A stretch of DNA of 64,000 bases from Candidatus Falkowbacteria bacterium (GCA_963747695.1 CAVVFV010000008.1:139592-203591), one strand, 5' to 3'; shown: positions 9,259 through 32,512, counted from the stretch's first letter. Notes: a model not told the origin generated them from the sequence alone. Program-made: numbers and translations.

Positions 9259-11010
9259 ATGAGAAAATTTTTCTTCTCGTTAATTTTAGTTGGGTTAGTC
9301 GCTGCCAGCGCGCTTTTGGCGACTCCGGCTTTTTCCGCTTCCGGAGGCTCGTTTTATCTTTCCCCATCCACCGGTACGGAATTTTTGAACAGTAAATTTA
9401 CCGTCGCCATCGATTTGAGTACAGGCGGTCAAAGCATCAATGCCGGCCAGGCATCGCTGACCTATGATAAATCTTTGCTTAAAGTTTTGAGCATCTCCAA
9501 GGGCTCGGTGTTCAGTCTTTGGACGGAAGAACCGACTTTTTCAGCGGGAGCCGGCACGATCGATTTTGGCGGCGGCGTGCCGCGTCCCGGCTATAGCGGC
9601 AACGGCGGTACGGTTTGCGTCATCACCTTTCAAGCCATCAAGTTGGGAACGGCGGCGGTGAATTTCACTTCCGGCGATCTTTTGGCCAACGACGGCCTGG
9701 GCACGAATATTTTGTCCAGCATGGGCTCAGCCAGTTTCAATATTACTCCCAAAGTAACGGCGCCGACGCCAGCGCCGACTCCGAATCAACCCGCTCCCAC
9801 GCCGACCCCAGCGCCGGTGGAAACCGCCGCCTATAACCGTCCGGTGATAACTTCCGCTACTCATCCCGATCAGACTAAATGGTATAAGGTCAAGACGGCT
9901 GATTTTGCCTGGAATTTGCCCGATGGGGCCACCGGCGTCAGCGTTGCCTTTGATCAAAAATCCGACACTGAACCGGGTAATGTTTCCGACGGTTTGTTCA
10001 ATAGTAAAGAATACACGGTCAATAATGACGGCAGCTGGTATATTCACGTCAAAGTCAAAGATAACCAGGGCCATTGGGGCACGGCCGGCCATTTCCGGGT
10101 GAACGTCGATTCCACCCCGCCGGCTGATTTCACCTTATCCGTGAAGCAAGAAGACCCTAATGATTGGCCGACGCTTAATTTCCAAACGACTGATGCTTTA
10201 TCCGGTTTGGACAGATATGAGATTTTGATCGACAGCTTGTCGGCGGCGCCGATCGTTTTGACGGCCGATAAAACTTCCTATAAATTGACCGATTTGGCGG
10301 TCGGTTCGCATACGGTGGCGGTCAAGGCGATCGATCTGGCCGGTAATGAAACGATGGCCAATCTGACTTTCGAATTCAACGCGGTAGCCACGCCGGTGAT
10401 TAAAAATTATTCCGCGGAATTAAAATCAAGCGACAAGTTCTTCATCAGCGGCACAGCCAATCCTTCTAATACGATCAATGTCTATATCCAGGGAGAAGGC
10501 CAGGCTCAGCCGGATCTTAGCAGCGTAAAAAGCGACGCTGACGGAAATTGGTTTTCGGTCGCGGCCAAGAATTACTCCAATGGCCAATATACCGCCTGGG
10601 TGGAAGCGGTGAATCCTAACGGTTTGAAGAGCAAACAGAGCACCAAGGTCAGCTTCCTGGTTACGGCGCCGATCTTCGCCCGGATCGGTTCATTCGTCTT
10701 GAATTATTTCACCGTGATCGTCTCGCTGCTCTTCATCATCGTTTTGATCGTTGCGTTGTTGATCTGGATCTGGGAATTCGTCCGCAAAAGATTAAAGAAA
10801 GAGACTTTAGAAATTGAAGACGTCCTGGAAAAAAATATCGAAGAATTGAAGATCGCCGTCTCTGAAGAGATCGATGATCTCTGCAAGATGAATCGCTCCG
10901 AATTCACCCGCGGCAAGGGCCGAGTGAAAGATATCTTGTATGAGCATATCGACGAAACCAACAAAAGGATCCTGAAGGAAATCAAGGACGTGGAGAAAAT
11001 TTTGAAATAA
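9259..11010 (+). CDS. cohesin-like domain protein, Pro/Thr linker, C-terminal TM and coiled-coil tail
   Basis: 583 aa with SD aaggag 6 nt upstream and a signal peptide ..PAFSA. GSFYLSPSTG..FTVAIDLSTGGQSINAGQASLTYDKSLLKVLSISKGSVFSLWTEEPTFSAGAGTIDFGGG, then a TPAPTPNQPAPTPTPAP linker and a TM near residue 480. Confidence 0.7.
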   Translation: MRKFFFSLILVGLVAASALLATPAFSASGGSFYLSPSTGTEFLNSKFTVAIDLSTGGQSINAGQASLTYDKSLLKVLSISKGSVFSLWTEEPTFSAGAGTIDFGGGVPRPGYSGNGGTVCVITFQAIKLGTAAVNFTSGDLLANDGLGTNILSSMGSASFNITPKVTAPTPAPTPNQPAPTPTPAPVETAAYNRPVITSATHPDQTKWYKVKTADFAWNLPDGATGVSVAFDQKSDTEPGNVSDGLFNSKEYTVNNDGSWYIHVKVKDNQGHWGTAGHFRVNVDSTPPADFTLSVKQEDPNDWPTLNFQTTDALSGLDRYEILIDSLSAAPIVLTADKTSYKLTDLAVGSHTVAVKAIDLAGNETMANLTFEFNAVATPVIKNYSAELKSSDKFFISGTANPSNTINVYIQGEGQAQPDLSSVKSDADGNWFSVAAKNYSNGQYTAWVEAVNPNGLKSKQSTKVSFLVTAPIFARIGSFVLNYFTVIVSLLFIIVLIVALLIWIWEFVRKRLKKETLEIEDVLEKNIEELKIAVSEEIDDLCKMNRSEFTRGKGRVKDILYEHIDETNKRILKEIKDVEKILK

Positions 11011-12335: not shown

Positions 12336-13025
12336 ATGCCTTATCGATATTCATTGCTGATATTATTGGCGTTTTCATCTTTTCTTCTTACGGCCTGCTC
12401 GACTGACAATCAACCGCCGGCGCGAAAAGTGCCTGAAGTATTGCTGGGGACTGATTGCGGTTTTGACAAGCTGAAGTGCTGTTCGACCACGCCGATTTGC
12501 AGTTACGGACAGCAATGTTGCATCGATCCGAATAACTCAACCGAGAATTATTGCGATGATAACTGCAATTGCGGCAATAATGAAGAATTTTGCTGTGCCG
12601 GTAATCAATGCAATGGCAATAATGTCTGCGTGGACGGTCTTTGCGCGGCTTGTGGTGATAAGGACCAGGTTTGCTGTACGACCGGCGCGGGCTGTTCAGC
12701 CGGATTAGTTTGTCAGAATAATAAATGCGCCGAATGCGGAATCAATGGCGGCCCCTGTTGCCCCGGATCGAGCTGCTTGCCTAAAACCGGGCAAATGGCC
12801 GAATGTTTGAATAATATTTGCGCTAACTGCGGTTTCGACGGTAATCCATCTTGTACGACCGGCGATAAATGCTTGCCCGGACAGCTGCTGACCGGAAAAA
12901 TCTGCCAACGTTGCGGCGGAAGCAACCAACCTTGCTGTGATTCTTCTTCCGGTACCGGTTATGATTGTGATCCCGCCGTGGCGGGATTGAAATGCGAACT
13001 GGGATTCTGCGCGGCAGGAAATTAG
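12336..13025 (+). CDS. Cys-rich repeat lipoprotein
   Basis: 229 aa with lipobox LLTAC. At least four tandem modules built around CxxCG..(P/V)CC: CAACGDKDQVCC, CAECGINGGPCC, CANCGFDGNPSC, CQRCGGSNQPCC. Confidence 0.65.
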   Translation: MPYRYSLLILLAFSSFLLTACSTDNQPPARKVPEVLLGTDCGFDKLKCCSTTPICSYGQQCCIDPNNSTENYCDDNCNCGNNEEFCCAGNQCNGNNVCVDGLCAACGDKDQVCCTTGAGCSAGLVCQNNKCAECGINGGPCCPGSSCLPKTGQMAECLNNICANCGFDGNPSCTTGDKCLPGQLLTGKICQRCGGSNQPCCDSSSGTGYDCDPAVAGLKCELGFCAAGN

Positions 13026-13183
13026 TTGATTAGTTAATTAGTCAATTAGTTGTCTTGTTTTAACAATTTGATAATTTAATTTCCTCAACTAAGTACCTAA
13101 TTAACTAATCAACTAATTCCAATTTTTTCTTGAACAAAGCCAAAAAAAATGTTAAAATATTCGAATAGAGATAAGTTTGAAAT

Positions 13184-14776
13184 ATGAATATTGTCATCGA
13201 TTTAACGCCATTTTTGAATTTTTTCAGCCAATCGCCGGATGTCATCGCCGCCCAGCTGCTTTTTTATTTTGGCTGGATTCCGATTGCCATCACCTTCCTC
13301 TGGGGATCGTTCAAGCTTTGGATTTTTTTTCGCCAGAACCAGTACGCGGCCAAGAACGGCAAATATACCCTCTTGGCCATTGATATACCCCGCGGCAACG
13401 AGCAATCGCCCCGGGCCGTGGAAAATTTATTCGCTTATCTGGCCGGAGCGCACGCCTCCATCAATCTGATCGAGCAATATTACGAGGGAAAATTTCAGAT
13501 GGGATTTTCTTTTGAGATCATCAGTACCGGCGGCTATACCCAATTCTTGATCCGGACGCCCATTCCCCAGCGCGATCTGGTCGAATCCGCCATTTACGCG
13601 CAATATCCGGACGCGGAAATAACCGAAGTTGACGATTACGTCACGCCTTTCAATAATGTCCGATTCCCTAATGATAAATATGAGATTATGGGGGCCGAGT
13701 TCATTCTGTCCCAGCCCAGGGCTTATCCGATCAAGACTTACGAAGAATTTGAACATCAGATGGGAGAGCCGGAAACTCATTTTAAGGATCCGATGGCCGC
13801 TTTGATGGACCTCTGTTCCAGCCTGCTGCCCGGGGAAAATCTTTGGTATCAGATGATCATCATTCCGATCGGTTTTGATTGGATGGAGGAACTGGATCTG
13901 GAAGTCAGCAAGATCTTGGGCGAAAAACCGAAATTCAAGAAAAACATTTTGCATTATGGCGCCGATGCCGCCTTGGGGATGATCTCGGCGGCAGGGAGCG
14001 CGGTGATGGGGCCGACCGAGGCTGTAGAAAAAAAAGTGGAGAAGAAAGATGATGTGCTGAAGATGATGCAGCTGAAACCCAAACAGAAAAAAAGAGTCGA
14101 GGGCATCGAGAAAAAATCCGGTAAAATCGCTTTTCATTTTAAGATCAGGGTAGTTTATCTGGCGGAAAAAGAAATTTTTAACAAAGCCAAAGTTTTTGGC
14201 GGTTTTGTCGGATTTATGAAGCAGTTCGCGGCGTTGGATTCCAATAATTTGAAACCGGATATGGATAAAACCGCGACCACGGCCAACTATTTGTTTCGGA
14301 AGAGCAATCTGAATCGCAAAAAGAATAATATTTTAAAATATTATATCAAGCGCGACGCGACCGCCGGCCGGAAACGCGGCCTGATGAATATCGAAGAACT
14401 GGCGACGATTTGGCATTTTCCGAATATGGGTACGGTTAAGGCGCCGCTGATTCAAATGGCGCCGGGCCGCAAAGCCGAACCGCCGATGACGCTGCCGCAA
14501 GCGGACGAAAGAGTCAGCGAAGAAAAAGCCGAGCCGTTGTTTCTGGGAGAACTGCAGGAAGAAACCGGTGCGGCAATCGGGTCCGCTCCAGCTGCACCTA
14601 ACCCGGAAAAATCAGCCGCTGCCCCGGAAGAACCGGATTTCACCAAGGCTTCTCCCTCTGTCCCGCCCAGCGGGACTGCGGCGGACAAGCCGGCTGACAA
14701 GCCCGAACCGTTTGCCGATGAAGAGCCAACTGATGAAAACCGGGGAGGGCCGCCGGAAAACCTGCCTTTCGTCTAA
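13184..14776 (+). CDS. hypothetical membrane protein (partner of downstream ATPase)
   Basis: 530 aa with an N-terminal TM pair (LLFYFGWIPIAITFLWGSFKLWIFF), a long soluble region and a Pro/Ala/Glu-rich low-complexity tail. Confidence 0.6.
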   Translation: MNIVIDLTPFLNFFSQSPDVIAAQLLFYFGWIPIAITFLWGSFKLWIFFRQNQYAAKNGKYTLLAIDIPRGNEQSPRAVENLFAYLAGAHASINLIEQYYEGKFQMGFSFEIISTGGYTQFLIRTPIPQRDLVESAIYAQYPDAEITEVDDYVTPFNNVRFPNDKYEIMGAEFILSQPRAYPIKTYEEFEHQMGEPETHFKDPMAALMDLCSSLLPGENLWYQMIIIPIGFDWMEELDLEVSKILGEKPKFKKNILHYGADAALGMISAAGSAVMGPTEAVEKKVEKKDDVLKMMQLKPKQKKRVEGIEKKSGKIAFHFKIRVVYLAEKEIFNKAKVFGGFVGFMKQFAALDSNNLKPDMDKTATTANYLFRKSNLNRKKNNILKYYIKRDATAGRKRGLMNIEELATIWHFPNMGTVKAPLIQMAPGRKAEPPMTLPQADERVSEEKAEPLFLGELQEETGAAIGSAPAAPNPEKSAAAPEEPDFTKASPSVPPSGTAADKPADKPEPFADEEPTDENRGGPPENLPFV

Positions 14777-14857: not shown

Positions 14858-16633
14858 ATGATTAACAGCGAGATAACTACATTTGCTGAGACCACCTTTC
14901 GTAACAGAAAGATCAAGTTCGGCATCAAAACCGACGACCGCCGCCGTCATATGTATTTGATCGGTAAAACCGGCATGGGCAAGTCGACGATTTTGGAAAA
15001 TATGATCGTGGCCGATATCCGCGCCGGGAAAGGCGTGGCGGTGGTCGATCCGCACGGCGATCTGGCCGAAAAAGTGATGCAATATATTCCCACCGAGCGG
15101 ATCAAAGATATCATTTATTTCAATCCGACGGATACGGAATTCCCCATCGCTTTTAATATCGTGGAAGCGGTAGATATCAAAGTACGGCACTTGGTCGCGT
15201 CCGGATTAGTCGGAGTCTTCAAAAAGCTTTGGGCTGATTCCTGGGGGCCAAGATTGGAATATATTTTACGTAACGCGATTTTGGCGGTTTTGGATTATCC
15301 CAATTCCACTTTGCTTTCGGTAATCCAAATGCTCTCCGACAAAGCTTATCGCAAAAAAGTCATGGCCGAGGTCAAGGATCCGGTGGTCAAATCTTTTTGG
15401 TTGAAAGAATTCGCCAGCTATGCCGACAAATTCGCCTCCGAGGCGGTCTCACCGATCCAGAATAAAGTCGGCCAATTTTTGTCGAGCTCGCTGATCCGCA
15501 ATATCGTCGGCCAGACCCGGTCTTCGATCGATGTCCGCGCGGCGATGGACCAGGGAAAAATTTTGATCTTGAATTTGTCCAAGGGCCATATCGGCGAAGA
15601 TAATTCGGCGCTTTTGGGCGCGATGATGATCACCAAGATCCAGCTGGCGGCGATGAGCCGGGTCGATATTCCCGAAAAAGAAAGAAAAGATTTTTATCTT
15701 TACATCGATGAGTTTCAGAATTTTTCGACCGAATCATTTGCGACGATCCTTTCCGAAGCGCGGAAATACCGGTTGAATCTGATCATCGCCCACCAATATA
15801 TGGAGCAGCTGACCGACGAAGTCAAGGCGGCCGTGTTCGGTAACGTCGGCACCCTGGTCGCTTTTCGCGTCGGCGCCGTTGATGCTGAGGAGTTGGTCAA
15901 GGAATTTACGCCAATCTTCGAGGAAGAAGACATTCTTAATTTGCCCAAGTACGAATTTTATATCAAATTAATGATTGATGGCGTGGCCTCATCGCCTTTT
16001 TCCGCGCGCGGGTTGCCGCCTTTGTCCGATGAAGAGCGAACTAATAATTTGCAGAAGGCGATTGACTGGACGCGGCAGACGTATGCTAAACCGCAGAAGG
16101 AAGTGGAAGAAGAGATTATGAGGATTCATTTTGCCGAAGAACCGGCTAAGCCGCCGGTAACCCCGGGGAGGGAAATCAAGTCGGCAGCGGATATTCCCCG
16201 GCCAAGTCCGGTATTGCCGAAAGCCGAACCCCGGGCCAAGCCGAAAGCGGGCGGAATTTTGTTTGATGCCAAATGCGCTTCTTGCGGCAGTCCGACCAAA
16301 GTTCCTTTTAAACCCGATCCGAGTCGGCCGGTTTATTGTAAGAATTGCTTATCCGAATTAAAAAAGAAAAAGCGCGATGGCGTCGTCGATCGTCCCGTCA
16401 AGAAAGACCGGATTGATCTTTCCCGAATTTCTCCTTCGACGCTGCTGGCGCGGGGAGCGGTGTCTACCGGGGCGAATGAGGAAGGTTACGTTTCGCTGGC
16501 CAAGCTGAAAGAAACCGGCCTGTCCAATTTTGCCCGAAAACCTAAAGTTGAAAATAATCCTCCGCCAGCGGTTGAAGCGTCGAAGAATCCGGAAAAAGAT
16601 CTGGCCGAAGGCGAGGATATAATATTCGAATAG
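14858..16633 (+). CDS. P-loop ATPase of the TraD/VirD4/HerA-like kind with C-terminal zinc ribbon
   Basis: Walker A LIGKTGMGKST and Walker B FYLYIDEFQNF. C-terminal CASCGSPTKVPFKPDPSRPVYCKNC. Confidence 0.7.
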   Translation: MINSEITTFAETTFRNRKIKFGIKTDDRRRHMYLIGKTGMGKSTILENMIVADIRAGKGVAVVDPHGDLAEKVMQYIPTERIKDIIYFNPTDTEFPIAFNIVEAVDIKVRHLVASGLVGVFKKLWADSWGPRLEYILRNAILAVLDYPNSTLLSVIQMLSDKAYRKKVMAEVKDPVVKSFWLKEFASYADKFASEAVSPIQNKVGQFLSSSLIRNIVGQTRSSIDVRAAMDQGKILILNLSKGHIGEDNSALLGAMMITKIQLAAMSRVDIPEKERKDFYLYIDEFQNFSTESFATILSEARKYRLNLIIAHQYMEQLTDEVKAAVFGNVGTLVAFRVGAVDAEELVKEFTPIFEEEDILNLPKYEFYIKLMIDGVASSPFSARGLPPLSDEERTNNLQKAIDWTRQTYAKPQKEVEEEIMRIHFAEEPAKPPVTPGREIKSAADIPRPSPVLPKAEPRAKPKAGGILFDAKCASCGSPTKVPFKPDPSRPVYCKNCLSELKKKKRDGVVDRPVKKDRIDLSRISPSTLLARGAVSTGANEEGYVSLAKLKETGLSNFARKPKVENNPPPAVEASKNPEKDLAEGEDIIFE

Positions 16634-16792
16634 TTAATTAGTTAATTAGGTACTTAGTTTTCTTATAATTTGATTTATCATAGTAAATTAGCGTAATCTT
16701 ACTGGAAAATGTTTTTTAATTAATTTGATAATAAATAGTAGAACATTCTAATCTCTAGTCAACTAATTAACCAATCAACTAATCGACTAACT

Positions 16793-19333: not shown

Positions 19334-19768
19334 ATGAAACCAAAACATCACAAAGGAAAATTGCTCACCGGACTTTTTTTGACACCGTATTTCTTCACTT
19401 TGGTTTGTCTGGTGGTGGTCGCGGTGATAATTTTGCCGGTCTATAAAAATGCCCGCGAGCGTTTGGCGGTTAATAGCCAAGTCGCTGATCTGCAGAAACA
19501 GATCAGCAGTTTGGAGGCGAGCAATAATGATTTGACTAAGCTGGAGGATTATCTGCAGTCCGATCAATTTGTGGAAAAAGAAGCCCGTTTGAATATGAAT
19601 TTGAAGATGCCGGGCGAGCATGTGGCGGTAATTGAGAATTCCGATTCCGCCTCCGGTCAAAGCGCTGACGGCTCAGCCGCTGGCAACGGCGATACAAAAA
19701 ATTCCAACCCGATTGAGTGGTGGAATTATTTTTTCGGAAGCGGTTCTGATGCGAATGCCGCGAATTAG
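19334..19768 (+). CDS. FtsB/DivIC-like septum formation initiator
   Basis: 144 aa with a single TM, a coiled coil (LQKQISSLEASNNDLTKLEDYL) and DQFVEKEARLNMNLKMPGEHV. The last 8 codons lie inside repeat R1. Confidence 0.6.
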   Translation: MKPKHHKGKLLTGLFLTPYFFTLVCLVVVAVIILPVYKNARERLAVNSQVADLQKQISSLEASNNDLTKLEDYLQSDQFVEKEARLNMNLKMPGEHVAVIENSDSASGQSADGSAAGNGDTKNSNPIEWWNYFFGSGSDANAAN

Positions 19769-19860
19769 TCGCGAATGCCGCGAAAAATGCGAATAACGTT
19801 TGAACCATTCGCGGTTTTCGCGGCATTCGCGCTCATTCGTAGATTTGCATCATGTTTATG
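19746..19860. repeat. long-hairpin intergenic element R1
   Basis: Arms are gcgaatgccgcgaaaaatgcgaat (19771..19794) and attcgcggttttcgcggcattcgc (19807..19830), followed by cattcgtagatttgcatcatgtttatg. Near-identical copy at 61777..61870. Confidence 0.75.
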
Positions 19861-20085
19861 AGCCGAGAAGGGGGATCGGACCCCTGACCTATTTACCCCG
19901 CATATCACTTAATTTTGTATTATAATCTCATGGAGCCGGCTGTCGGGGTTGAACCGACCACCTGCGGTTTACGATACCGCCGCTCTACCAGATGAGCTAA
20001 GCCGGCATCATGAGATTATAATACAAATCATTTTAAGAATGCGGGGCGAGCGATACCGTCGCTCTACCAGCTGAGCTATCTCGGC
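19861..20085 (-). pseudogene. interrupted Thr(CGU)-like tRNA gene hosting a nested tRNA
   Basis: The 5' part (20085..20051) gives the acceptor strand GCCGAGA, a D arm and ACGGT-ATCG. The 3' part (19890..19861) gives AGGTC, T arm AGGGG-TCCGATC-CCCCT and acceptor strand TCTCGGC, complementary 7/7. About 160 nt intervene. Confidence 0.5.
19934..20006 (-). tRNA. tRNA-Thr (anticodon CGU)
   Basis: 73-nt cloverleaf: GCCGGCT/AGCCGGC acceptor, GCTC/GAGC D stem, GCGGT-ATCGTAA-ACCGC anticodon arm, GTCGG-TTCAACC-CCGAC T arm. No encoded CCA. Confidence 0.85.
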
Positions 20086-20314
20086 CTTTTTGAAACATTT
20101 TTTCAAAAAAGGTTTCAATACTTCCAAAAATATAATGTGTCAAGAGCTAATTTTTGAGCGAGCAAAGCTCTACTGCCCAAAAATTAGCCCTTGACTGAGA
20201 TAATTGAAAAAACTAGAAATTTGGAATCGTCCCGCCTTTCCCTGGACCGGATTTATTGGTATTATTAAATTATCATTAAATTTATTTAAAAGCAAGGCTA
20301 GATTTAGGCTATTT

Positions 20315-22024
20315 ATGATAAAAAATTGGAAATTACTTTTAACTTTTAACTTTTTACTTTTAACTTTCGCTGCCCTGCCTGCGTTGGCTGATCAGGGCAT
20401 TGTTTTTGATGATGGCGGAGTTTCGTCAACGCCGGTTCCGGTCGCGACAGTTGCGGCGCCGGTCGTGCCGGGATCGGCCACTTCGACCGCCGCGGAAAAC
20501 TATTTTGCTGCCAGCAATACGTCGGCGGTCAGCGCCGATCTGAACGCCGCCGCTTCCTTTAAGGGTGATGCTTTGTCGACCGCCGATCATAATTTCACGG
20601 TTTCTTTTCCAGCCAAGTCCTTACTAACCGCTGTGCGGATTGATGCCGAGCTGGTTAGCGAAGAGTTGCCGACGCCGTGGAAACTGGAAAAAATCAGCCC
20701 GACTTATCAATTTGATTTGAGCGATAGTTCGGCTTATAACAATAAATTGCCGATCACTTTGACCATCGGCTATAACGGCGATAACCAATATTATAAAAGA
20801 GTTTATTTTTTCGACAAGAATTCGCAATCTTGGCGCGAATTGCCGACCACGGATAATCCGGCCAACCAGACAGTCACGGCCAAGATTTTCCTCCCTTATG
20901 CCCAGGTGGCGGTGATGAGCGATCCTTCCATCTTGGTTTTGGGCAAGGCCAGCTGGTATGCTTATAAAGGAGGTAATTTTGCCGCGGCGGTTGATTTTCC
21001 TAAAGGTTCGAAATTGCGCGTTTACAACACGGACAATAATAAATCGGTCGACATTACGGTCAACGATTTCGGTCCGGATCGCGCGCAGTTTCCCGATCGC
21101 ATCTTGGATCTGGATAAAGTGGCCTTCAAGAAGATCGCCAGTAAAGGCGAAGGGGTGATCAATATTCGCGTCCAACCGCTCTTGGTGACGCCGGACGCCA
21201 ATGGCCGAGTACTGGGAGTTTCCGAAGAAGGAGCGATGGCGCAACCGGATATCAAGGCCGCCGCCGCGATTGTCACCGACGAAAAGACCGGCGCGGTGAT
21301 CTGGGAAAAAAATTCTGCCGCTGTCTTGCCTTTGGCCAGCTTATCCAAGCTGGTAGCGATCAAAGTTTTTTTTAATCAGCAGCCGTCTTTGAATACCGTG
21401 GTAACTTATCAGAAGCAAGACGAATTGTATAATTATCAGTATTGCTCGCCGGCGGAATCGGCCCGCGTGACGCTTAATGATGGGGACACGCTGACGATCG
21501 GTGACCTGGTTTATTCCGCTTTGGTCGGTTCGGCCAATAATGCCGTTGAATCTTTGGTCAGAGTTTCCGGTCTTTCCCGCGATGCTTTCATCGCTGCGAT
21601 GAATTCTTATGTCAGTTCAATCGGCGCGACCAGCACTCATTTCATCGAACCAACCGGGCTTTCGGCGCAAAACGTGAGCACCGCCCAAGACTATGCTATA
21701 ATTACTAGGGAAATATACCAGACCCCATTGATCCAAAAGATTACCGTGACTCCCAAATATTCTTTCATTACGATCAATACCAAGAAAAAGCATACCTTGA
21801 CCAACACTAATGATTTTATCCGCGATGGAGTTTTTGCGGCGAGCAACAATTTGAAAGTTACGGGCTCAAAAACCGGCTACTTGGATCAGTATAATTTGAT
21901 GACCAGAGCGACGGGTTCCGGCGGGGAAGAAGTGATCGCGGTGGATTTCGGGGCGACGACTAAATTGCAAAGCTTGGCGGAAACCGAAGAGCTGATCGAA
22001 TATGGAATCAAAACCTTAAAGTAA
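20315..22024 (+). CDS. RlpA-like (DPBB) domain plus D-alanyl-D-alanine carboxypeptidase (PBP5/S11-type)
   Basis: Start moved to ATG 20315 (MIKNWKLLLTF.. signal). ASWYAYKGGNFAAAV..VNDFGPD is RlpA-like. Penicillin-binding motifs are SLSK (SxxK), SANN (SxN) and KTG. Confidence 0.75.
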   Translation: MIKNWKLLLTFNFLLLTFAALPALADQGIVFDDGGVSSTPVPVATVAAPVVPGSATSTAAENYFAASNTSAVSADLNAAASFKGDALSTADHNFTVSFPAKSLLTAVRIDAELVSEELPTPWKLEKISPTYQFDLSDSSAYNNKLPITLTIGYNGDNQYYKRVYFFDKNSQSWRELPTTDNPANQTVTAKIFLPYAQVAVMSDPSILVLGKASWYAYKGGNFAAAVDFPKGSKLRVYNTDNNKSVDITVNDFGPDRAQFPDRILDLDKVAFKKIASKGEGVINIRVQPLLVTPDANGRVLGVSEEGAMAQPDIKAAAAIVTDEKTGAVIWEKNSAAVLPLASLSKLVAIKVFFNQQPSLNTVVTYQKQDELYNYQYCSPAESARVTLNDGDTLTIGDLVYSALVGSANNAVESLVRVSGLSRDAFIAAMNSYVSSIGATSTHFIEPTGLSAQNVSTAQDYAIITREIYQTPLIQKITVTPKYSFITINTKKKHTLTNTNDFIRDGVFAASNNLKVTGSKTGYLDQYNLMTRATGSGGEEVIAVDFGATTKLQSLAETEELIEYGIKTLK

Positions 22025-22741: not shown

Positions 22742-22815
22742 ATTGTTATATTGTCATATTGCTATATTGTTACGCGCTGAAAAAAATTAATTTTAACAAT
22801 ATAACAATATAGCAA
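22742..22815. repeat. caatata/tattg-family intergenic palindrome, copy 1
   Basis: Arms are attgttatattgtcatattgctatattgttacgc and ttaacaatataacaatatagcaat. Copies at 48567..48652 and 51836..51918. Confidence 0.75.
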
Positions 22816-22827
22816 TAAATTATCATT

Positions 22828-25069: not shown

Positions 25070-25191
25070 TCGGGGATCGTCCAACGGCCTGCCCAAGGCG
25101 GGCGCGTAGGACAGCAGCCTTTGGAGCTGTTAATCATGGTTCGCCCCAGCCATTCGGCGGGGCGCCAGGGGTTCATCCCCTGGCGAATCCA
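25070..25191 (+). pseudogene. tRNA-Gln-like 5' fragment carrying two GC-hairpin insertions
   Basis: Identical to tRNA-Gln positions 1 to about 58, except for a 19-nt insert in the D loop (25088..25106) and a 42-nt insert in the T loop (25144..25185). Homology stops at aatcca, and the 3' T-stem and acceptor strand are missing. Confidence 0.6.
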
Positions 25192-25204: not shown

Positions 25205-25275
25205 TCGGGGATCGTCCAACGGTAGGACAGCAGCCTTTGGAGCTGTTAATCATGGTTCGAATCCATGTCCCCGAA
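25205..25275 (+). tRNA. tRNA-Gln (anticodon UUG)
   Basis: 71-nt cloverleaf: TCGGGGA/TCCCCGA acceptor, GTCC/GGAC D stem, GCAGC-CTTTGGA-GCTGT anticodon arm, CATGG-TTCGAAT-CCATG T arm. Its 3' end forms the left junction of the island. Confidence 0.85.
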
Positions 25276-26741
25276 CACAGAAAATACTAAGCCCTTTTTC
25301 AGGCAAAATTTTTAACGCTTCGCGAAGCGAAGCGTAAGGTTTGATGGGCACAAATTTAAGTTTTTGATTTATCAAAAACAAGTTCGAGCCGAAGATTTTT
25401 TGGAGATGTGCCTTTTTGGCACATAGATCGTCATTGGTTGCTGTTTTAGCAAGCAATGACGCATCTTTTATCCATTCCCGCATCGGTTCGAGCCAAGTTC
25501 CGGCGTTCTGTTCTAAGCGGGCTATTTGCTCCTCGAGCGACCTCTTTTGCGAGATGACGGCCTTCCGACGGTTTAGGTAGTCTTCCCGCTCGATATCTTG
25601 GGCCAGATAGAGGTCGGTGAGCCGCTCGAGGTTGCGGGATAGGCCTTGTGTCTTCTCCCGCAAGTCCTGGACGAATACCGCCGTTTTCTGCCCTAATTCT
25701 ATCTCTTCCTCATTTGTCCTCCTCGTGAGTTCATTAGCTATATTTTCCGGCATTGAAAATTCAGATAATAGATTTGATAGCTCGGAAACTAAAATCTCTT
25801 CTCTAACATACGATTGAGAACATTTGACTGTTGTTGATTTTTTGGTACAGCGGTAATAGGTATGAGATTTTTGGACTTCAGCGGTAATCATTTTTCCGCA
25901 CTCGCCGCAATGCAATAGACCGCATAAGGGTTTGGGGTCGTTTCCGGTTCTCTGCGGATGACCTCTATCAATCAAAACATTTTGGACTTTATCCCATAAC
26001 CGCTTCTCAATGAGCGGTTTATGCTTGCCCTCATAGATATCGCCGTTATATCTAAATACGCCGTAATAGAAAGGATTGGAGAGAATAAACTTAGCTCTGT
26101 CCTTGTGTAGCGGTTTATCGCCCGCGCTTTTAACACCTTGCTTAAAAAGAAAGTTGGAAATATCCTCGAGGCGATAATTACCTTTGGAGTAGAGCTCAAA
26201 GGCGGCTCGGATGATTTTTGATTTTCTTCGGTCAACGATAATCGTTTTAGCCCGCACGTCGTTTAAGATAGCCTGTCGGAGCTGTGCCGGGAAAGTGTCC
26301 CAGTCGCGCCTTCTGTCTAAGCCCGCGGCTCGTGTTGGAGCTTAGGTCGCGGATGAACTGATTGGCCATACCTAATTCAACGGCCATCAACAGGACGTTA
26401 TCGTTAGGTCGATAGCTTTTGTCCGGCATCAGGATATGTTCAATGATGCTCTGCTGGATCATCCAGCTTATTTGTCCGCCGTCCACCGGATTGCGCGCCA
26501 GACGGTCAAGCTTCCAGCAGACAATCCCCTTGGCTTCGCCCTTGTTAATCCGTTTAAGCATCTCGTTAAAAACCGGTCGGCCCGGAGCTTTGGCCGATTG
26601 TTTTTCTACGAATTCGCGGATTATCTCGATATGTTCGGCCTTGGCCAGTTGGCGCAGTTCGACGAGCTGGGCTTCAATGGACAAAACCTGTTTGTCCTCG
26701 ACATCAGTTGATTTGCGGGCGTAGAGGAAATAGTTTGGCAT
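25250..26741 (-). pseudogene. large serine recombinase, split by a frameshift near 26247..26257
   Basis: The N-terminal resolvase domain (MPNYFLYARKSTDVEDKQVLSIEAQ.., 26741..26247) ends ..PTGYLKRRAG*. The overlapping frame continues (V)RAKTIIVDRRKSKIIRAAFELY.. with the recombinase domain, the zinc ribbon CGECG..YYRC and a coiled coil. The last 26 nt overlap the antisense of tRNA-Gln. Confidence 0.75.
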
Positions 26742-26755
26742 AGTATTTAGCTTAG

Positions 26756-26771
26756 TGGCGTTATAACGCCA
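26756..26771. promoter_or_regulatory. 16-bp perfect palindrome in divergent promoter region (candidate operator)
   Basis: tggcgtta|taacgcca lies between the recombinase start (26741, minus) and the HTH gene start (26817, plus). Confidence 0.4.
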
Positions 26772-26816
26772 TATAGAATAATAATAACACAATTGATAGG
26801 ATATACAATAACAACT

Positions 26817-27020
26817 ATGGATATTTCAAAAAAATTCGGCAAAGCAGTTAGAGCGGCACGCCTTGAAAAAGGAATGTCTCAGGGAGATTTGGCGTTAAAA
26901 TTAAAGGTTGACGCTTCTTATATTAGTAAGATAGAGCGAGGCATACAAAATATGTCACTTGAAGGTGTGGAAAAAATAGCCAAAGCATTGAGTGTGCCAA
27001 TAGTAGAATTAATTAAATGA
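26817..27020 (+). CDS. XRE-family HTH protein resembling R-M controller (C) proteins
   Basis: MDISKKFGKAVRAARLEKGMSQGDLALKLKVDASYISKIERGIQNMSLEGVEKIAKALSVPIVELIK. Its stop overlaps the next start (ATGA). The ORF track starts 8 codons earlier. Confidence 0.8.
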   Translation: MDISKKFGKAVRAARLEKGMSQGDLALKLKVDASYISKIERGIQNMSLEGVEKIAKALSVPIVELIK

Positions 27021-28417
27021 TTATGGACGACGAAAATTTTATAAAAATAAGTCAGCTTACTATTAGTAATTCTTATAATCAGAATTACAAACCATTTATA
27101 AAAACATTAATATTGACCCGCTTACCTTTTTTGAAAAGGAACGAGCTTTTTATGCGCGGGATACAGATAGGGATGCTCGATAGTTTGTCAAAAATGCAGG
27201 ATAACTTAAGAGAATTTAATTCAAAACTATCTTCTTCACTTTCAGCGCTTGAAACGAAAAATCTAGAAAAAAATATTCTTATTCAAAATGAATGGATAAG
27301 AACTATACAAACCATAGCAGACGGGATAGCTTGGCGTAGCTTTAATTTTGATAGACCAATTTTGCGCCACTTATCTGATAATAAATCTCCGGGGCATATA
27401 TCCCAACTTGGACAAGGATTTGATTATCTAGAAACTTTAAAGAAATTTTTAAGAACTTTCAATGGATTCCCGATCGTTAATGATCTAACACGTATTCTTC
27501 GTATCGGAGACTTTACTGTTTTTTATCCTCAAAATAAACAGATGATTTATGAGATAAAAGAAAAAGGAAAAAAGATTTTTAATGTCGGACAGATTTTCTA
27601 CGAGATTAAACGAAGCAAAAAAATACCAAATCCGCAGAAATGGAGGCAACTTACCGCACAGATGTCTATCATAGAAAGAAAGGTTAGGCTCATAACAAAA
27701 AAAGATGGTTCTGTCCAGGATAATTTTGAAGTAGATATTGTGGATTTAAAATTCCCCATAAAAAATCACTTTCGCAAACTAAAAAAACTAATAAGGGTTG
27801 CTGATAGGGAAGGAATAGCCGCTATGACGGTTGAGGATGGGTATTTTATACAAGTTGTTGCCGTGGATAAAATGAAGAATGAGAAAATTGCCCAACATGT
27901 TTCCGCAAAGTTTAAAACAAATTATCCTAAGTGGGTAAAAAACAATCCAAACATTTTTTCTCTAACGAATTATGATAGCTTTTATCAAGAAGGGGGAGAG
28001 TTTACTAGAAATATTATTCCATATTCTGTTTTACCTTTATCAGCACGAAACTGCGTTCGTTTAATGATGGGGCATCTTTGGATAACGGTAATCATTGATA
28101 CGTCTATAATAAAGAAAAAGCTATTAAAACTTAATTGGAAAGTTTCTGAAGGAGAAATTCCCGATCAGCTCCCAGCGGGGGCAACGTTAAAACAAAAAGT
28201 GGATAGTGAAAAATTTTTTGAGATAAAAAAGGACGATGAAAATGGCACATTTACCAGCAATCTGACTATAAGCGAGATAATGATTGCTTTATCGTCATTC
28301 TATAGTTTTGATTTTCTGATAGATTCGTTGGAATTCTCTTATCATGAAGCAAGGCGAACAAAAAGGTCTGGGTATGTAACGAAAAATTATCTCGGTGAAC
28401 AAAAATTGTTAATTTAG
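27017..28417 (+). CDS. hypothetical 466-aa protein, possible PD-(D/E)xK-type nuclease
   Basis: Translationally coupled to the HTH gene. The only motif seen is RIGDFTVFYPQNKQMIYEIKEKG (D-x13-E-x-K). No P-loop, no TM. Confidence 0.6.
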   Translation: MIMDDENFIKISQLTISNSYNQNYKPFIKTLILTRLPFLKRNELFMRGIQIGMLDSLSKMQDNLREFNSKLSSSLSALETKNLEKNILIQNEWIRTIQTIADGIAWRSFNFDRPILRHLSDNKSPGHISQLGQGFDYLETLKKFLRTFNGFPIVNDLTRILRIGDFTVFYPQNKQMIYEIKEKGKKIFNVGQIFYEIKRSKKIPNPQKWRQLTAQMSIIERKVRLITKKDGSVQDNFEVDIVDLKFPIKNHFRKLKKLIRVADREGIAAMTVEDGYFIQVVAVDKMKNEKIAQHVSAKFKTNYPKWVKNNPNIFSLTNYDSFYQEGGEFTRNIIPYSVLPLSARNCVRLMMGHLWITVIIDTSIIKKKLLKLNWKVSEGEIPDQLPAGATLKQKVDSEKFFEIKKDDENGTFTSNLTISEIMIALSSFYSFDFLIDSLEFSYHEARRTKRSGYVTKNYLGEQKLLI

Positions 28418-28430
28418 CAAGTCTAGAAGT

Positions 28431-29001
28431 CATCTCCAAAAAATCTTCGGCTCGAACTTGTTTTTGATAAATCAAAAACTTAAATTTGTGCCCATCAAAC
28501 CTTACGCTTCGCTTCGCGAAGCGTTAAAAATTTTGCCTGAAAAAGGGCTTAGTATTTTCTGTGCTCATCTCTATGACCTCGCTCGAGGATATTTTTTAGA
28601 GAATTCCTGACCCAAAATATAGCCGTCTAACTGCCGCCAGCTAGCGGCCATTTTCCCGTTTTACGCTCAAAGCAAGGGGGCCAACTAGGTGAACAGCTAT
28701 ATGAACAGCTGTATGAACGACTAGTTGAACCCGGGTTCAACTAGCAGACACCGATTTAAGCAGTTATCCTAGCCAAATTCTATTTTCAAAAATGAGTGAC
28801 TATTACTCCGACAACGGAATCAACTGAACGACAAATATATATTATTACTACACTAAGACATTACGACTAAACTACAAATTATAATTACTACTTAAACCAA
28901 TTATACTAAATACAAATATTAATTACAGATATTATTTAATTTCAGATACTACTTTCCAACTACTGGCCAAAACCAAGAAAAAAATGGGGAATGAGGGGAA
29001 A
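28431..29001. repeat. 571-bp inverted-repeat copy (X' + tg core + B') containing an attP-type junction
   Basis: 28431..28561 is the exact reverse complement of 25278..25408. 28564..29001 is the reverse complement of 37089..37526: the outer ~300 bp are identical and the inner ~140 bp carry scattered mismatches and one small indel. Confidence 0.85.
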
Positions 29002-29175
29002 GCCCATCGCCCCGACATAGGTCGGGGCGAGATTGATGGCCCAGGAAACGAAGAGTGTAATAGATACAATCGAACCAGCGACTATTTAAGTAAAAGGCTC
29101 CGACAAAGGGGGTGCCTTTTACTTTGACATTGAAAGAAAATTGTGGTAATATGCGACAATAATAAAGAATAATGT

Positions 29176-30000
29176 ATGGCAAAAAAGATTTTAACATTCT
29201 ATGTTCACCAAATCGTTGTTGAGGGCTTGAATAGTTTTGATTGTTCAACCTTTGGTGCTATAAAAGATTTTGACACCGAAACCCAAGAGATGAAGGAAAT
29301 TGAGGATGGGAAAGACGAAATATTATCCGTAAAAAAGGTGTCAAAAAGTATTCATGAAGACAGATTTGTCGCCATATATTTTAATATTGGTGATAAATAT
29401 CCGTATTCATCAAAGGTTGTTAATGAAAGTCTGTGTGAACAGGATAATCCAAGAGCGCCTGATTTAATCGAATTAGACGAGCAACTTTTTGCATTAGTTG
29501 ATGTTGAAAAGCAACGCCTATGGATATCTAACCAACAAAAAAAGGGTGATATAAGAATTTGGCTAGAAAATAAATTAGGCAAAAAGGTGACTGTAAAATC
29601 TATAATAAAGGACGGAGAATTTATTAACAAGATTAAATCAGTTCGAGAAATTTCCTTTTCTGTTACGCCAAATATATTTAATTCCCCTGGTCAAAATACT
29701 CTTTCAAGTCGCTTGATTGATGATATGTATGGATTTGGTGCCAAAGAAGCAAGATTGTGTTTAAAATATGAAAATTCAAAAATTAGTGATAAAATAAAAC
29801 AGAAGATAAGTGATCTGTTAAAGCGACAAGTTGATTTTAAAGATATTACGGTTATTGGGTATAGTGATGAAAATCTTGAAAGCACGTTTAATATGAATGA
29901 AATAACCAGTAAGATTTTAATTGATTTGCCGGTAGATGAAAAGACAAAGTTGCTAGATTCTGCTGAGGTTTTTGCGAGTTTAATTAGCAAGATTAAATAA
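29176..30000 (+). CDS. hypothetical soluble protein (274 aa), island cargo
   Basis: Clean ORF, Lys/Asp/Glu-rich, no TM and no motif recognised. Followed after 6 nt by a 4-TM protein gene. Confidence 0.6.
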   Translation: MAKKILTFYVHQIVVEGLNSFDCSTFGAIKDFDTETQEMKEIEDGKDEILSVKKVSKSIHEDRFVAIYFNIGDKYPYSSKVVNESLCEQDNPRAPDLIELDEQLFALVDVEKQRLWISNQQKKGDIRIWLENKLGKKVTVKSIIKDGEFINKIKSVREISFSVTPNIFNSPGQNTLSSRLIDDMYGFGAKEARLCLKYENSKISDKIKQKISDLLKRQVDFKDITVIGYSDENLESTFNMNEITSKILIDLPVDEKTKLLDSAEVFASLISKIK

Positions 30001-30006
30001 ACGAGT

Positions 30007-30474
30007 ATGAAGAAAAAAATAATATTTTCATCATTAATTTTCGTTTTAATAATTTTGGTGCAAAGAATTTGTTTATCAGGCGAAAAATTTAATGCATCCG
30101 TCGTTGGCGATGTTATAACGTTTCTCTCGATTACTTTTGGTTTTTATATTACTAGCTTGGCGATCTTTATGACGTCTCAATTTGTTGCCGATTTATACAA
30201 GGTGGTCGATAAGGATGACAATTCCTCAACGCTTTTGCATAAGCTCATGAGTAATTATAAATTTGGGTTAATGCTAACATTAATTTCCTTGATGTATTTC
30301 ATTGCTATTGATTTTTTTGTGAAGCCAGATGTTAATAGTGAAATATCTTTCATGTCTATTCCTGCATATCCAATTCTCGCCTTTTTGATTCTTAATTTTG
30401 CCTTTTGTTTTATTATGTTGGGTGACTTGGTAAATGTTATAATACAGGAGGGTAAAATTCGAACAAAGCAGTAA
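30007..30474 (+). CDS. hypothetical 4-TM membrane protein (155 aa), island cargo
   Basis: Four hydrophobic helices (IIFSSLIFVLIILV, ITFLSITFGFYITSLAIFM, FGLMLTLISLMYFIAIDFF, AYPILAFLILNFAFCFIML). Confidence 0.6.
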   Translation: MKKKIIFSSLIFVLIILVQRICLSGEKFNASVVGDVITFLSITFGFYITSLAIFMTSQFVADLYKVVDKDDNSSTLLHKLMSNYKFGLMLTLISLMYFIAIDFFVKPDVNSEISFMSIPAYPILAFLILNFAFCFIMLGDLVNVIIQEGKIRTKQ

Positions 30475-30502
30475 TGCTGATATTGCATTTATTACGGTTA
30501 TG

Positions 30503-30536
30503 AAAACTCCTTTTTTAAAGAAAGGAGTTTTTTTTA
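30503..30536 (+). terminator. rho-independent terminator
   Basis: aaaactccttt-ttttaaag-aaaggagtttttttt. It separates the 2-gene cassette from the mod operon. Confidence 0.65.
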
Positions 30537-30628
30537 ATCAATAATATTTATAAATAATTATGTAATTTTCGCTTGATTTTTGGTTTTAAAAGTGGTAAAC
30601 TTGAAATTCAATTATAAATATAAAAAAT

Positions 30629-32512
30629 ATGAACTCACTAATTTACGAATTGCCAAAAATAGTTGACGAGGGCAAGAAGGAAGTGGAAAAAATTCTAGAA
30701 AGATTGTCGGGCTCAAATAAATTGGCACTCCAAACCAATGAAATAGTTTTGCCGGCCAAGGATAGCGATAATCTTTGGAGCGGGCAAATGCCGAAGGTCA
30801 ACGAGGGGGAATGGATGAATCGTTTGGTCTATGGCGATAATTTGCTGGTGATGCAGGCGCTTTTGGCTGGCGATTTAGAATCTGGTTTGCCTTCAATGCG
30901 CGGAAAAATTGATTTAATTTATATTGATCCGCCGTTTGACAGTAAGGCGGATTACCGGACTAAGGTGACATTGCCCGGGGCGGACTTGGAACAGAAACCG
31001 ACAGTGATTGAACAATTCGCTTATGCCGATACCTGGAAAGACGGTACCGTTTCTTATCTTAAGATGCTTTATCCGCGGTTGGCTTTAATGAAAGAACTTT
31101 TGTCTGACAAGGGTTCAATTTATGTCCATATTGATTGGCATGTCGGGCATTATGTCAAAATTTTATTGGATGATATTTTTGGGAAAAACAACCTCGTTAA
31201 TGAAATAATATGGAAATATCATGTTGGAACAACTCCACTGAAAGGACTAGGGAAAAAGCATGACAATATTTTGTTTTATAAAAAATCGAATGAATTTAAG
31301 TTTAATTTATGGAGGGAGGCAATACCGGAAGAAAGAATAAAGGATTATAAATACACCGATGAAAATGGAAGAAAGTATAGATTGGGTGGAAATAATGACA
31401 ATACCGTATACTATCTCGACAATGGTAAGGCGGCCACTGACGTATGGACGGATATAAATATTATTAATAAATCGGCAAAGGAAAGGCTTGATTATGGTAC
31501 GCAGAAGCCTCAAAAATTAATCGAAAGAATAATTGAGCAATCGTCTGATAAGAATGATATAGTTGTAGATTTATTCGCTGGTTCTGGCACGACAGCGGCG
31601 GCTGCGGAAAAATTAGGAAGAAGATGGATTGTATCAGATATTGGCAAGCCAGCAAGCTTGGTAATGCGCAAACGCTTAATTGATCAAAATTCAAAACCAT
31701 TTTTATATCAATCTATCGGTGATTATCAAAAAGAGGCCTTGTCTTCTTCTAAACTTTACCGCCGCGTTGGTGATTTAGCGCACGTCGTCCTGCAGCTTTT
31801 TGGCGCTATTCCTTTCCCTGACGATCAAAATCCAAATCGCAATCTCGGCTACATTAAAGAAAGTCGGACCTTGGTAATGGTAGATTCGCCGAATAAGCTG
31901 ACCGGCTTGGCCACGCTTAAAAAAGCACAAGAATATAAAAATTCTTTTCTTGGCGGCTGGAACAAGGTAGTCGTCTTGGGTTGGAATTTTACTTATGATA
32001 TTACCGAGGCTATTCAATTAACTGGCGATGATAAATTGGATGTTTTAGTCATTCCGCCAGACTTGTTGGATAAATTAAAAACTAAAGCGAGCTATCAGGA
32101 TTTGATTAGCAGTGGAAAGATTAGATTTTCTTCCTTGCAATATTTATCTGTTAAGCCAATAACAGTTGAACCGGCTGGCGAACAGGAAAAATTAGTGATT
32201 GAGTTGGATAATTATGTATTGCTTTCCCCGGACAATATCCCTTTGGACGATAAAGACAAAGAGAAGTTAAAAGAAATAATCGCTAAGGATTCACTGGCTT
32301 TAATTGAATATTGGAGCGTTGATCCCGATTATGACGGCATTACTTTTCGGAGTAAGTGGCAGGATTATCGCGAGAACGAAGCCAATGACGGCGATCCATA
32401 TCATGTTGTCACTAAAACGCAATTAACCGTGCCAAAAACGACCAACCGAAAAGTTTGCGTTAAAGCGGTTGATGTCTTTGGCTTTGAAAGCATTGTTATC
32501 GAAAAACTATGA
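30629..32512 (+). CDS. mod: Type III R-M DNA methyltransferase (Mod), beta-class N6/N4 amino-MTase
   Basis: 627 aa. Motif [11 protein letters not shown] precedes motif [21 protein letters not shown], with a central variable region. Located upstream of a Res-type helicase-nuclease. Confidence 0.8.

Follow-up and report, generated by a model that had tools for sequence, protein, structure and literature searches.

A 64,000-nucleotide (nt) stretch of DNA from a Candidatus Falkowbacteria bacterium (GCA_963747695.1 CAVVFV010000008.1:139592-203591; hereafter the window, with positions counted from its first base) holds one tRNA-Thr(CGU) gene inside another, at the tip of a helix of 8 bp and 19 bp that separates the two halves of the outer gene (19861–20085). 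Our analysis suggests that a resident tRNA-Thr(CGU) was inactivated by a palindromic, self-compensating insert of 160–165 nt that has no open reading frame (ORF) and that brought a second tRNA-Thr(CGU) with it, and we regard this reading, in which the insert is a miniature analogue of tRNA-dependent lysogeny, as the probable one. Nesting of tRNA genes within genes for the same isoacceptor recurs, sometimes serially, in loci of named or inferred Patescibacteria.

All elements of the nested unit are read on the minus strand. The outer 5′ half, nt 1–35 of a tRNA (20051–20085), is GCCGAGATAGCTCAGCTGGTAGAGCGACGGTATCG and comprises the 5′ acceptor strand, the D arm, the 5′ strand of the anticodon stem and the loop as far as G35; from 20085 to 20051 it parses as GCCGAGA TA GCTC AGCTGGTA GAGC G ACGGT ATCG. 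The outer 3′ part, nt 44–73 (19861–19890), is AGGTCAGGGGTCCGATCCCCCTTCTCGGCT and comprises the variable loop, the T arm and the 3′ acceptor strand, which parse from 19890 to 19861 as AGGTC AGGGG TCCGATC CCCCT TCTCGGC T, with TCCGATC an unusual T loop. The original prediction took these pieces for the acceptor stem and the D and T arms of a single tRNA, and rechecking of both confirms it, the acceptor strands GCCGAGA and TCTCGGC being perfectly complementary. The two stems described in that prediction are likewise present in the 160 nt that separate the halves (20050–19891). The insert opens with CTCG (20047–20050), which together with a following CCCyG also starts a cassette at a related locus, L154. 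Next come the left arm CCCCGCAT of an 8-bp G+C clamp (20039–20046), paired with its right arm ATGCGGGG (19896–19903); an internal loop with 11 nt on its left side, TCTTAAAATGA (20028–20038), and 10 nt on its right, ATTAAGTGAT (19904–19913); and a perfect 19-bp inverted repeat formed by TTTGTATTATAATCTCATG (20009–20027) and CATGAGATTATAATACAAA (19914–19932). The dinucleotide AT lies between the left arm of this repeat and the intact inner tRNA-Thr(CGU) (19931–20006), which consists of a 73-nt body (19934–20006) and an encoded CCA (19931–19933) whose last two bases overlap the right arm. This inner gene, with a canonical TTCAACC T loop, scores 58.1 bits against RF00005 (E = 6e-10; gathering score 29) and is called tRNA-Thr (cgt) by ARAGORN, as is expected of a canonical bacterial tRNA, and from its sequence it is taken to be functional; neither ARAGORN nor Rfam calls the outer gene. 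From the D stem to ATCG the two genes differ at 2 nt, and the insert follows G35, between nt 35 and 36, both as predicted; this point is the dyad center of the anticodon arm. Terminal inverted repeats, here of 8 and 19 bp, and the lack of coding capacity are features that the insert shares with miniature palindromic elements.

Chance falls far short of explaining the nested palindromic structure. In the window, 0.02 matches to the 19-mer arm are expected and 2 are found. The 236-nt fold, which includes the acceptor stem of the outer gene along with both helix stems and the cloverleaf of the inner gene, reaches −106.8 kcal/mol (z = −8.0 relative to shuffles). Across 409 tRNA genes from all loci examined, the longest exact complement between leader and trailer is 4–10 bp in all but two genes, the outliers being the inner gene of the window (17–19 bp) and another nested case (12 bp).

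Comparison with syntenic loci reveals which of the two genes was there first. ORFs flanking the unit encode a GT2 glycosyltransferase, DivIC, a penicillin-binding protein (PBP) with DPBB and S11 domains, FtsE and FtsX; the gene content of the window is bacterial (DivIC, FtsEX, PBP), and the nearest PBP homologues carry Patescibacteria annotation. The order DivIC, opposite-strand tRNA-Thr, PBP, FtsE, FtsX is kept in about 17 other readable loci. In the closest relatives found, L124 (PBP 80% identical) and L002 (77%), the tRNA-Thr(CGU) between DivIC and PBP is uninterrupted (GCCGAGATAGCTCAGCTGGTAGAGCGACGGTATCGTAAACCGTAGGTCAGGGGTCCGATCCCCCTTCTCGGCT), so that what stands opposite the outer halves in relatives is a tRNA gene and not unrelated sequence, and the halves match it at 35 of 35 and 30 of 30 bases. 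Another single intact tRNA-Thr(CGU), of a GCCGATG type, occupies the locus in L003, L004 and L126, and a lone intact tRNA of the GCCGAGA type is present at each of about 12 more remote syntenic loci. The outer gene is thus the ancestral resident and the insert is derived, since an uninterrupted copy sits at the orthologous locus in the closest relatives; the insert is also lineage-specific. Because the outer halves are free of substitutions and the 19-bp stem is perfect, the sequence argues for a recent event in the lineage of the window. The inner tRNA lies two mismatches from a free-standing tRNA-Thr(CGU) in the metagenome locus L221, the organism of which is not established, and its type also occurs free-standing in other metagenome loci with tRNAs like those of the candidate phyla radiation (CPR); a guess that L221 was the orthologous locus of a Falkowbacteria relative proved wrong. 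As a separate observation, the resident tRNA-Thr(CGU) of this clade (window 19866–19880, minus strand; L124, L002, L008, L019, L038, L048, L096) has a T loop of TCCGATC or TCCGAAT, which puts C at position 55, a site that almost all tRNAs fill with U (pseudouridine 55).

The same comparison defines the damage to the outer gene. Where the intact orthologue has ATCG-TAAACCGT-AGGTC, the window has ATCG-[insert]-TAAAT-AGGTC, so relative to L124 and L002 the segment affected is TAAACCGT (nt 36–43), of which TAAA..T is retained. The right boundary is ambiguous: either TAAAT (19891–19895) represents host nt 36–39 plus T43 and CCG (nt 40–42) was lost, or TAAAT is the 3′ end of the insert and host nt 36–43 were lost. 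The related cassette in L154 ends in ...CAGGGTAAAG, which is compatible with TAAAT belonging to the insert. At both junctions tRNA sequence is joined to non-tRNA sequence, and the host gene is rebuilt at neither. Because 3–8 nt of the 3′ strand of the anticodon stem are missing, the outer gene is destroyed, although its acceptor, D and T arms are present, and it fails as a canonical tRNA. The original prediction that simple excision leaves no canonical arm therefore stands, with its loss of 3 nt widened to 3–8. When the halves are joined after removal of 160 or 165 nt, TAAAT being kept in one version and left out in the other, ARAGORN finds no tRNA; it finds tRNA-Thr only with TAAACCGT restored, and in intron mode it does not call the outer gene.

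An intron or split-tRNA arrangement, which the original prediction had offered as an alternative, finds no support in these results. Excision yields no tRNA, so the outer gene is dead, reduced to pseudogene fragments that excision cannot restore, and probably not part of an intron or split-tRNA system; the host, moreover, is bacterial. No RF00028 group I core was found in 19600–20400 even at E ≤ 10, by a search that did find one in L180 (1038–1224, minus strand; 62.6 bits), apparently within another RNA gene, and the 5′ exon would end in G35 rather than U. Rfam searches of the region at gathering and at E ≤ 10, and of seven related loci at E ≤ 0.01, returned only tRNAs and that one unrelated group I intron, with no match to a ribozyme, Y-RNA/YrlA or an RNA associated with insertion sequences. 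For a bulge-helix-bulge (BHB) motif, no 3-nt bulges 4 bp apart were evident by inspection, no dedicated BHB search having been made; the two junctions face one another across the internal loop.

The window is not an isolated case. Scans with the outer 5′ 21-mer against species-representative genomes and with the inner 5′ 25-mer against metagenomes of the Joint Genome Institute (JGI) gave at least 240 loci. Among the matches listed, together with a few look-ups, there are at least seven further nested loci (L154, L180, L249, L215, L241, L022 and L087), and the inner and outer anticodons are equal in all eight when the window is counted; none of about 150 loci from other phyla among the matches listed shows nesting. 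Two of the seven are named Patescibacteria, namely L022 (Ca. Komeilibacteria) and L087 (Ca. Magasanikbacteria); L154 probably belongs there by its annotated MurI homologues, L180 and L249 probably by shared synteny and homology, and L215 and L241 are placed there provisionally by a CPR-like tRNA type only. In L154 there are three levels, all Thr(CGU): tRNA A is cut after ..GGTATCG by tRNA B, which has D- and T-loop hairpin inserts of its own and whose anticodon loop is in turn cut by tRNA C, which is intact and lies between the arms of a 12-bp inverted repeat. At the same MurI-tRNA-atp locus, L180 has Thr(CGU) within Thr(CGU), with the outer gene cut after ATCG and two 3′ halves downstream of the intact inner gene; ARAGORN in intron mode mis-calls this outer gene as tRNA-Met, and most calls made in that mode are false joins of neighboring tRNAs, for which reason it was rejected as a detector of nested tRNAs. 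L249, with a MurI 78% identical to that of L154, shows a clean ATCG|insert+tRNA|TAAACCGT, in which the flanks of the insert are homologous to L180 and a T-loop insert is homologous to L154. L215 reads ATCG|CCCGCCTGCCAGA[tRNA-Thr CGU]GTGGCGGG, again Thr(CGU) in Thr(CGU).

The remaining three loci extend the range of positions and isoacceptors. The outer tRNA-Thr of L241 carries a 61-nt hairpin at 35/36 and is split by a GIY-YIG ORF (PF01541, E = 3e-14) together with an intact tRNA-Thr(CGU), and an 85-nt direct repeat of the anticodon arm flanks both sides. In L022, Thr(UGU) lies within the T loop of Thr(UGU), with a second hairpin at 35/36. L087 has Gly(CCC) within Gly(CCC), which RNAfold renders as two nested cloverleaves, and a T-loop hairpin of the same sequence family as the hairpin of L241. 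The Ca. Doudnabacteria loci L250–257, in which an intact tRNA is accompanied by only the 3′ half of an older gene and by a flank with homology to the arm of the L154 cassette, resemble a decayed stage of nesting. A tblastn search with the L241 GIY-YIG protein found no counterpart in the window, so that any link between this nuclease and the window cassette is indirect. Small ORFs related to it lie about 0.4–1.2 kb from tRNA-Thr in L130 (123–275), L138 (2074–2309), L238 (934–1074) and L076 (361–558), which suggests a GIY-YIG nuclease family associated with tRNA-Thr genes.

The inserts share their positions and, in part, their ends. Those examined in anticodon and T loops fall at or within about 1 base of nt 35 or nt 57, the dyad centers, with the cut after nt 35 in the window, L154-A, L180, L215, L241 and L249; D-loop inserts are less regular and not central. 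The inserts are C-rich at the start and G-rich at the end, which forms a clamp, and exact boundaries are ambiguous by at least 1 base where C runs start and G runs end the insert (L241, L087). The ends of the window cassette, CTCGCCCCG...CGGGGTAAAT, resemble those of L154-B, CTCGCCCTG...CAGGGTAAAG, and one hairpin family, CCCGCCCGCAAmGCCT...TTGCGATGGCGGGCGGG, is common to L241, where it sits in the anticodon loop of a tRNA-Thr, and L087, where it sits in the T loop of a tRNA-Gly; cassette arms are otherwise not conserved between loci. When eleven hairpin inserts were compared with the window and all loci by blastn-short, only the L241/L087 and L002/L125 hairpins recurred, and the flanks of the window cassette had no other match. 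A regular expression for the end motifs CTCGCCCyG/CCCCGCAT was too noisy for use. Serial nesting implies that each newcomer landed in the then-intact innermost gene, as is predicted by a mechanism that recognizes an intact anticodon arm.

Several observations weigh against a dedicated inserting element. The junctions are imprecise, with 3–8 nt of target lost, and show neither a target-site duplication nor a core common to both; we compared the window junctions with a core of tyrosine-recombinase type, with the central dinucleotide of a serine recombinase and with duplication of the target site, and they fit none of these. A CG repeat flanks only the 42-nt T-loop insert of a tRNA-Gln pseudo-copy in the window, and not the Thr cassette or the inserts of L241 and L087. 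There is no integrase, nuclease or transposase in or beside the insert, the neighbors of which are the same housekeeping genes as in relatives, and the arms differ from cassette to cassette, a poor fit to one terminal inverted repeat bound by a transposase. A second copy of the 19-bp arm or flanks, which the original prediction had proposed to look for, was found in none of the 64-kb window, 1.75 Mb of loci and IMG/VR; the rest of the genome and large collections lie outside this search. Of the self-compensating selfish insertion originally proposed, the replacement copy in the anticodon loop of a resident gene is supported by intact orthologues, equal anticodons and recurrence in at least seven other loci, while the cassette itself may be selfish or mobile. 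In IMG/VR there were zero matches to an 18-nt arm, to the 3′ part of the inner tRNA and to two generic patterns of a Thr 5′ half followed by CC or CTCG, and hence no sign of a phage vector.

Imprecise junctions with no duplication or shared core, the lack of a nearby mobility gene and a cassette that is single-copy in the data searched are also what one would expect if a tRNA-Thr fragment with about 45 nt on each side had been captured at a break by one-off illegitimate recombination, with no dedicated element or enzyme, and had been kept only through carrying a working tRNA copy. Patescibacteria are thought to take up DNA, which would favor such a capture. Illegitimate recombination nevertheless leaves unexplained the reuse of the nt-35 position in six loci, the isoacceptor match in eight of eight, the serial nesting in L154 and the common cassette ends, and the captured flanks would have to include a perfect 19-bp inverted repeat, an extreme outlier among the 409 tRNA genes. 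We therefore consider this origin unlikely, if the most serious of the rivals. Homologous single crossover, template switching and deletion within a tandem array were rejected as origins; each of them should leave tandem or hybrid genes and would not place an entire foreign tRNA between junctions that lack homology.

The outer stems of L087, L154-B and L249 are still complementary despite insertions in two or three loops, which also counts against a simple history of disruption and could reflect selection on an outer scaffold rather than a dead gene. Outer scaffold and helix might then form a functional composite RNA, selected for processing or stability, or one from which the insert is removed by splicing or ligation so that both tRNAs are made. 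Such an RNA would suit the substitution-free outer halves and the folding of the whole unit, far better than that of shuffles, and the T-loop insert common to L154 and L249 indicates that the architecture is old in that lineage. However, the window lacks the 3′ anticodon-stem strand and no choice of boundary restores a tRNA, the closest relatives manage without the arrangement, the flanks of the inner tRNA differ between related nested loci (L154 and L180), decay products have lost one outer half (L250–257), and no ribozyme or intron family was detected. A composite RNA is accordingly quite improbable.

A further point against the insertion reading is that only one metagenome assembly contains the locus; a look-up of the PBP protein of the window brought up no independent one. 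Amplification chimeras typically contain palindromes, and in a lone metagenome-assembled contig two tRNA-Thr variants from different strains could have been joined as a chimera or a fold-back. The independent Logan assembly of this organism (L001) stops short of the locus, 5 nt beyond DivIC. The structure is, however, interior to a long contig with syntenic genes on both sides, its arms are non-tRNA sequence and not duplicated flanks, and the same kind of nesting is present in seven independent assemblies from other samples, so that an assembly artefact is very hard to credit.

Under the favored insertion model, the nested unit would be transcribed from a resident upstream element. A promoter-like AT-rich element at 20255–20300 on the tRNA strand (minus; CCTTGmTTTTAwAAATAwTTAATGATAmTTTwATAATACCA) is conserved in seven orthologous loci and is a candidate promoter of the whole unit, though it could instead belong to the divergent PBP gene. 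Transcription would end at a terminator-like hairpin with a T run near 19800 (19780–19812, minus strand), about 50 nt past the outer 3′ end; this hairpin belongs to an inverted-repeat element of the GCGAATGCCGCGAA family. Two more hairpins, at 20090–20118 (14 bp) and 20139–20195 (21 bp, 90%), occupy the leader that runs from the promoter-like element to the outer tRNA and enlarge the intergenic region to about 546 nt, compared with 190–290 nt in most relatives. The 8+19-bp helix of leader and trailer would insulate the inner cloverleaf from the outer 5′ half, which is almost the same in sequence, and the inner tRNA would be released by RNase P and 3′ trimming, possibly after RNase III cuts the helix; it would then do the decoding, with the outer halves discarded. 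As to origin, a tRNA-carrying element may have inserted by a site-specific recombinase-type or homing-type reaction and, as in tRNA-dependent lysogeny, made good the gene that it destroyed. The present cassette would be either a deletion remnant, consisting of the tRNA and inverted ends and no longer removable by selection since it holds the only working gene, or a miniature element mobilized in trans; an excised circular form would show the junction ...GGGGTAAAT|CTCGCCCC.... The incoming tRNA would also re-create the target, allowing later cassettes to land in it and produce a Russian-doll series such as that of L154. A broader proposal, which we hold only tentatively and judge rather less likely than not to be correct, is that Patescibacteria harbor a new class of miniature, mostly ORF-less, hairpin-ended cassettes, site-specific at the dyad centers of anticodon and T arms, whose same-isoacceptor tRNA re-creates their own target and which serially overwrite tRNA genes, the window being a fresh two-level example.

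If this is true, horizontal replacement of tRNA genes in reduced CPR genomes proceeds by insertion and not by homologous exchange, and the host becomes dependent on the incoming copy. The cassette would be a minimal self-compensating element, in which the experimentally shown principle of tRNA-dependent lysogeny is reduced to about 160 nt. For annotation, standard tRNA finders report the inner gene only and intron mode mis-calls the outer one, so tRNA complements, completeness estimates and counts of “introns” in Patescibacteria can be distorted. The arrangement also resembles the engineered “tRNA scaffold” used for RNA expression, and the insertion activity, which would have a very short, structure-defined target, is a possible source of tools.

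Fragments of tRNA genes and G+C-rich hairpins were observed at other loci as well. In L002 (2160–2265, minus strand) and L125 (55–121), a 5′ fragment of the resident tRNA-Thr, GCCGAGATAGCTCAGCTGGTA, is cut after GGTA by a conserved 67-nt G+C-rich double hairpin and resumes with GAGCGACGGTA; the intact gene lies about 50 nt downstream. In L126/L127 (2100–2300, minus strand), the intact tRNA-Thr is followed by a tandem pair of identical 100-nt units, and at the end of each is a 3′ tRNA fragment (nt 44 onward) with a 30-nt double hairpin in its T loop (CCACCCAAAGGGTGG TCCGCCTTTGGCGGA). L068 contains a tRNA-Thr(GGU) with an insert of about 190 nt after ATGGT (36/37; 2798–3060) that is not group I by Rfam at E ≤ 0.01, and three tandem copies of the first ~24 nt of tRNA-Thr(CGU) plus ~45 nt before the intact gene (3117–3405). 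A G+C-rich double-hairpin element, TTCCCCTC..GAGGGGTGG..GGGGTG, recurs in L003 (6234–6285 and ~6500–6555, both copies apparently inside a Pur_DNA_glyco coding region), L002 (5040–5141), L004 (~5850) and L126 (~6080). In L058 (1087–1193), a tRNA-Thr(UGU) in a normal tRNA cluster is directly flanked by a 16-bp inverted repeat, ACCTGCCATTGCCTAA / TTAGGTAATGGCAGGT, with no obvious outer halves, and may be a cassette whose host gene has decayed. The metagenome contig L196 has a dense array of more than 20 tRNA genes (8400–10700 and 13100–13850), including a tRNA-like sequence with a long insert (8424–8540).

Elsewhere in the window lies a second case with a related pattern: an intact tRNA-Gln(UUG) (25205–25276) is preceded by a pseudo-copy of its nt 1–62 (25070–25190), the D loop (CCTGCCC...) and T loop (after TTCG) of which hold G+C hairpin inserts. 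The last 18 nt of this tRNA-Gln are repeated at 37643 and 37775, on the far side of an island of 12.5 kb (~25277–37640) and low G+C content (0.35–0.39), in the manner of att sites; each repeat ends a tandem 132-nt unit (region 37530–37792) and is preceded by ...GGGGTA. An ORF of serine-recombinase type (Recombinase+Zn_ribbon_recom; 25250–26257, minus strand) abuts the tRNA-Gln, and the 9-mer GGGGTAAAT is found at the junction of the island end and at the right junction of the Thr cassette. The island looks like an integrated element and may represent either classical T-loop integration or an island that carried in its own tRNA-Gln. Intergenic inverted repeats composed of short tandem motifs form three families, GCGAATGCCGCGAA, ATTGTTATATTGCTATATTG and AATTAGTTGATTAG, each of which occurs at several sites in the window (19751–19831 and 61783–61843; 22749–22817, 48544–48679 and 51838–51918; 13020–13118 and 16623–16781). 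About 3 kb from the locus, an ORF with TrwB/TraG-type coupling-protein domains and a treble-clef zinc finger (14858–16633) hints at conjugative or mobile DNA nearby.

In an incomplete full-text library, searched for nested, tRNA-in-tRNA and intron-encoded tRNAs and for CPR tRNA introns, we came upon no account of this arrangement. Several known systems share part of the arrangement. Archaeal split, tri-split and permuted tRNA genes and BHB introns, as in Nanoarchaeum and Caldivirga, yield halves that a splicing endonuclease and a ligase join into an essential tRNA. The window resembles split tRNAs in that its halves are held by a long helix of flanking sequences, but its 3′ anticodon strand is lost, a tRNA with the same anticodon lies inside, and relatives are unsplit. 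Split and permuted genes have been reviewed (PMC4090602), and the archaeal BHB splicing system is not reported in bacteria (PMC13011429). Patescibacteria do have group I introns at tRNA position 35/36; these catalytic RNAs have a length of 184 nt or more, follow U35 in Asn, Asp and Tyr genes, and undergo precise splicing in vitro (Nakagawa et al. 2026, PMC13011429). Phylum and nominal position agree with the window, and in both cases standard tRNA finders miss the genes, whereas the window insert has no RF00028 core, follows G35, is mostly tRNA and leaves an exon that cannot be restored.

Miniature inverted-repeat transposable elements, REPINs and Rickettsia palindromic elements are short, ORF-less and hairpin-forming, and some insert in structured RNA genes. 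Similar G+C-clamped hairpins lie in tRNA fragments of several loci and in one protein-coding gene of L003; the window cassette differs from these elements in having a functional gene aboard, in being single-copy in the data searched, in arms that are not common to cassettes and in the lack of a target-site duplication. Some integrative elements, reportedly described by Williams in 2002, use the anticodon loop or the T loop of a tRNA gene as their insertion site, with fragments of tRNA left behind. The sublocations agree with those seen here, and displaced fragments lie by an intact gene in L002, L126, L035, L250 and the tRNA-Gln region of the window. Classical integrative elements, however, carry only the 3′ part of a tRNA and rebuild a hybrid gene at one junction, while the window has a whole foreign tRNA between two non-tRNA junctions; the tRNA fragment problem of such elements has been reviewed (PMC9897764).

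Self-compensating disruption of a tRNA gene has its known precedent in the tRNA-dependent lysogeny of actinobacteriophages (Guerrero-Bustamante & Hatfull 2024, PMC10865867). There, too, the host tRNA gene is broken and not rebuilt, a complete tRNA of the same isotype compensates, and the host halves flank the insert; disruption without rebuilding and a same-isotype tRNA are likewise found in the window, the latter also in the seven other loci, while an integrase and an attP/attB core are not. The phage system involves a whole prophage, a tyrosine integrase and a common core of about 10 bp, in contrast to the 160 nt of the window insert, which is hairpin-ended, has no ORF and no detectable core, resides in a Patescibacteria chromosome and has relatives that are nested recursively. 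We group the locus with self-compensating insertions into tRNA genes, with a substantial chance that it represents a new family of elements.

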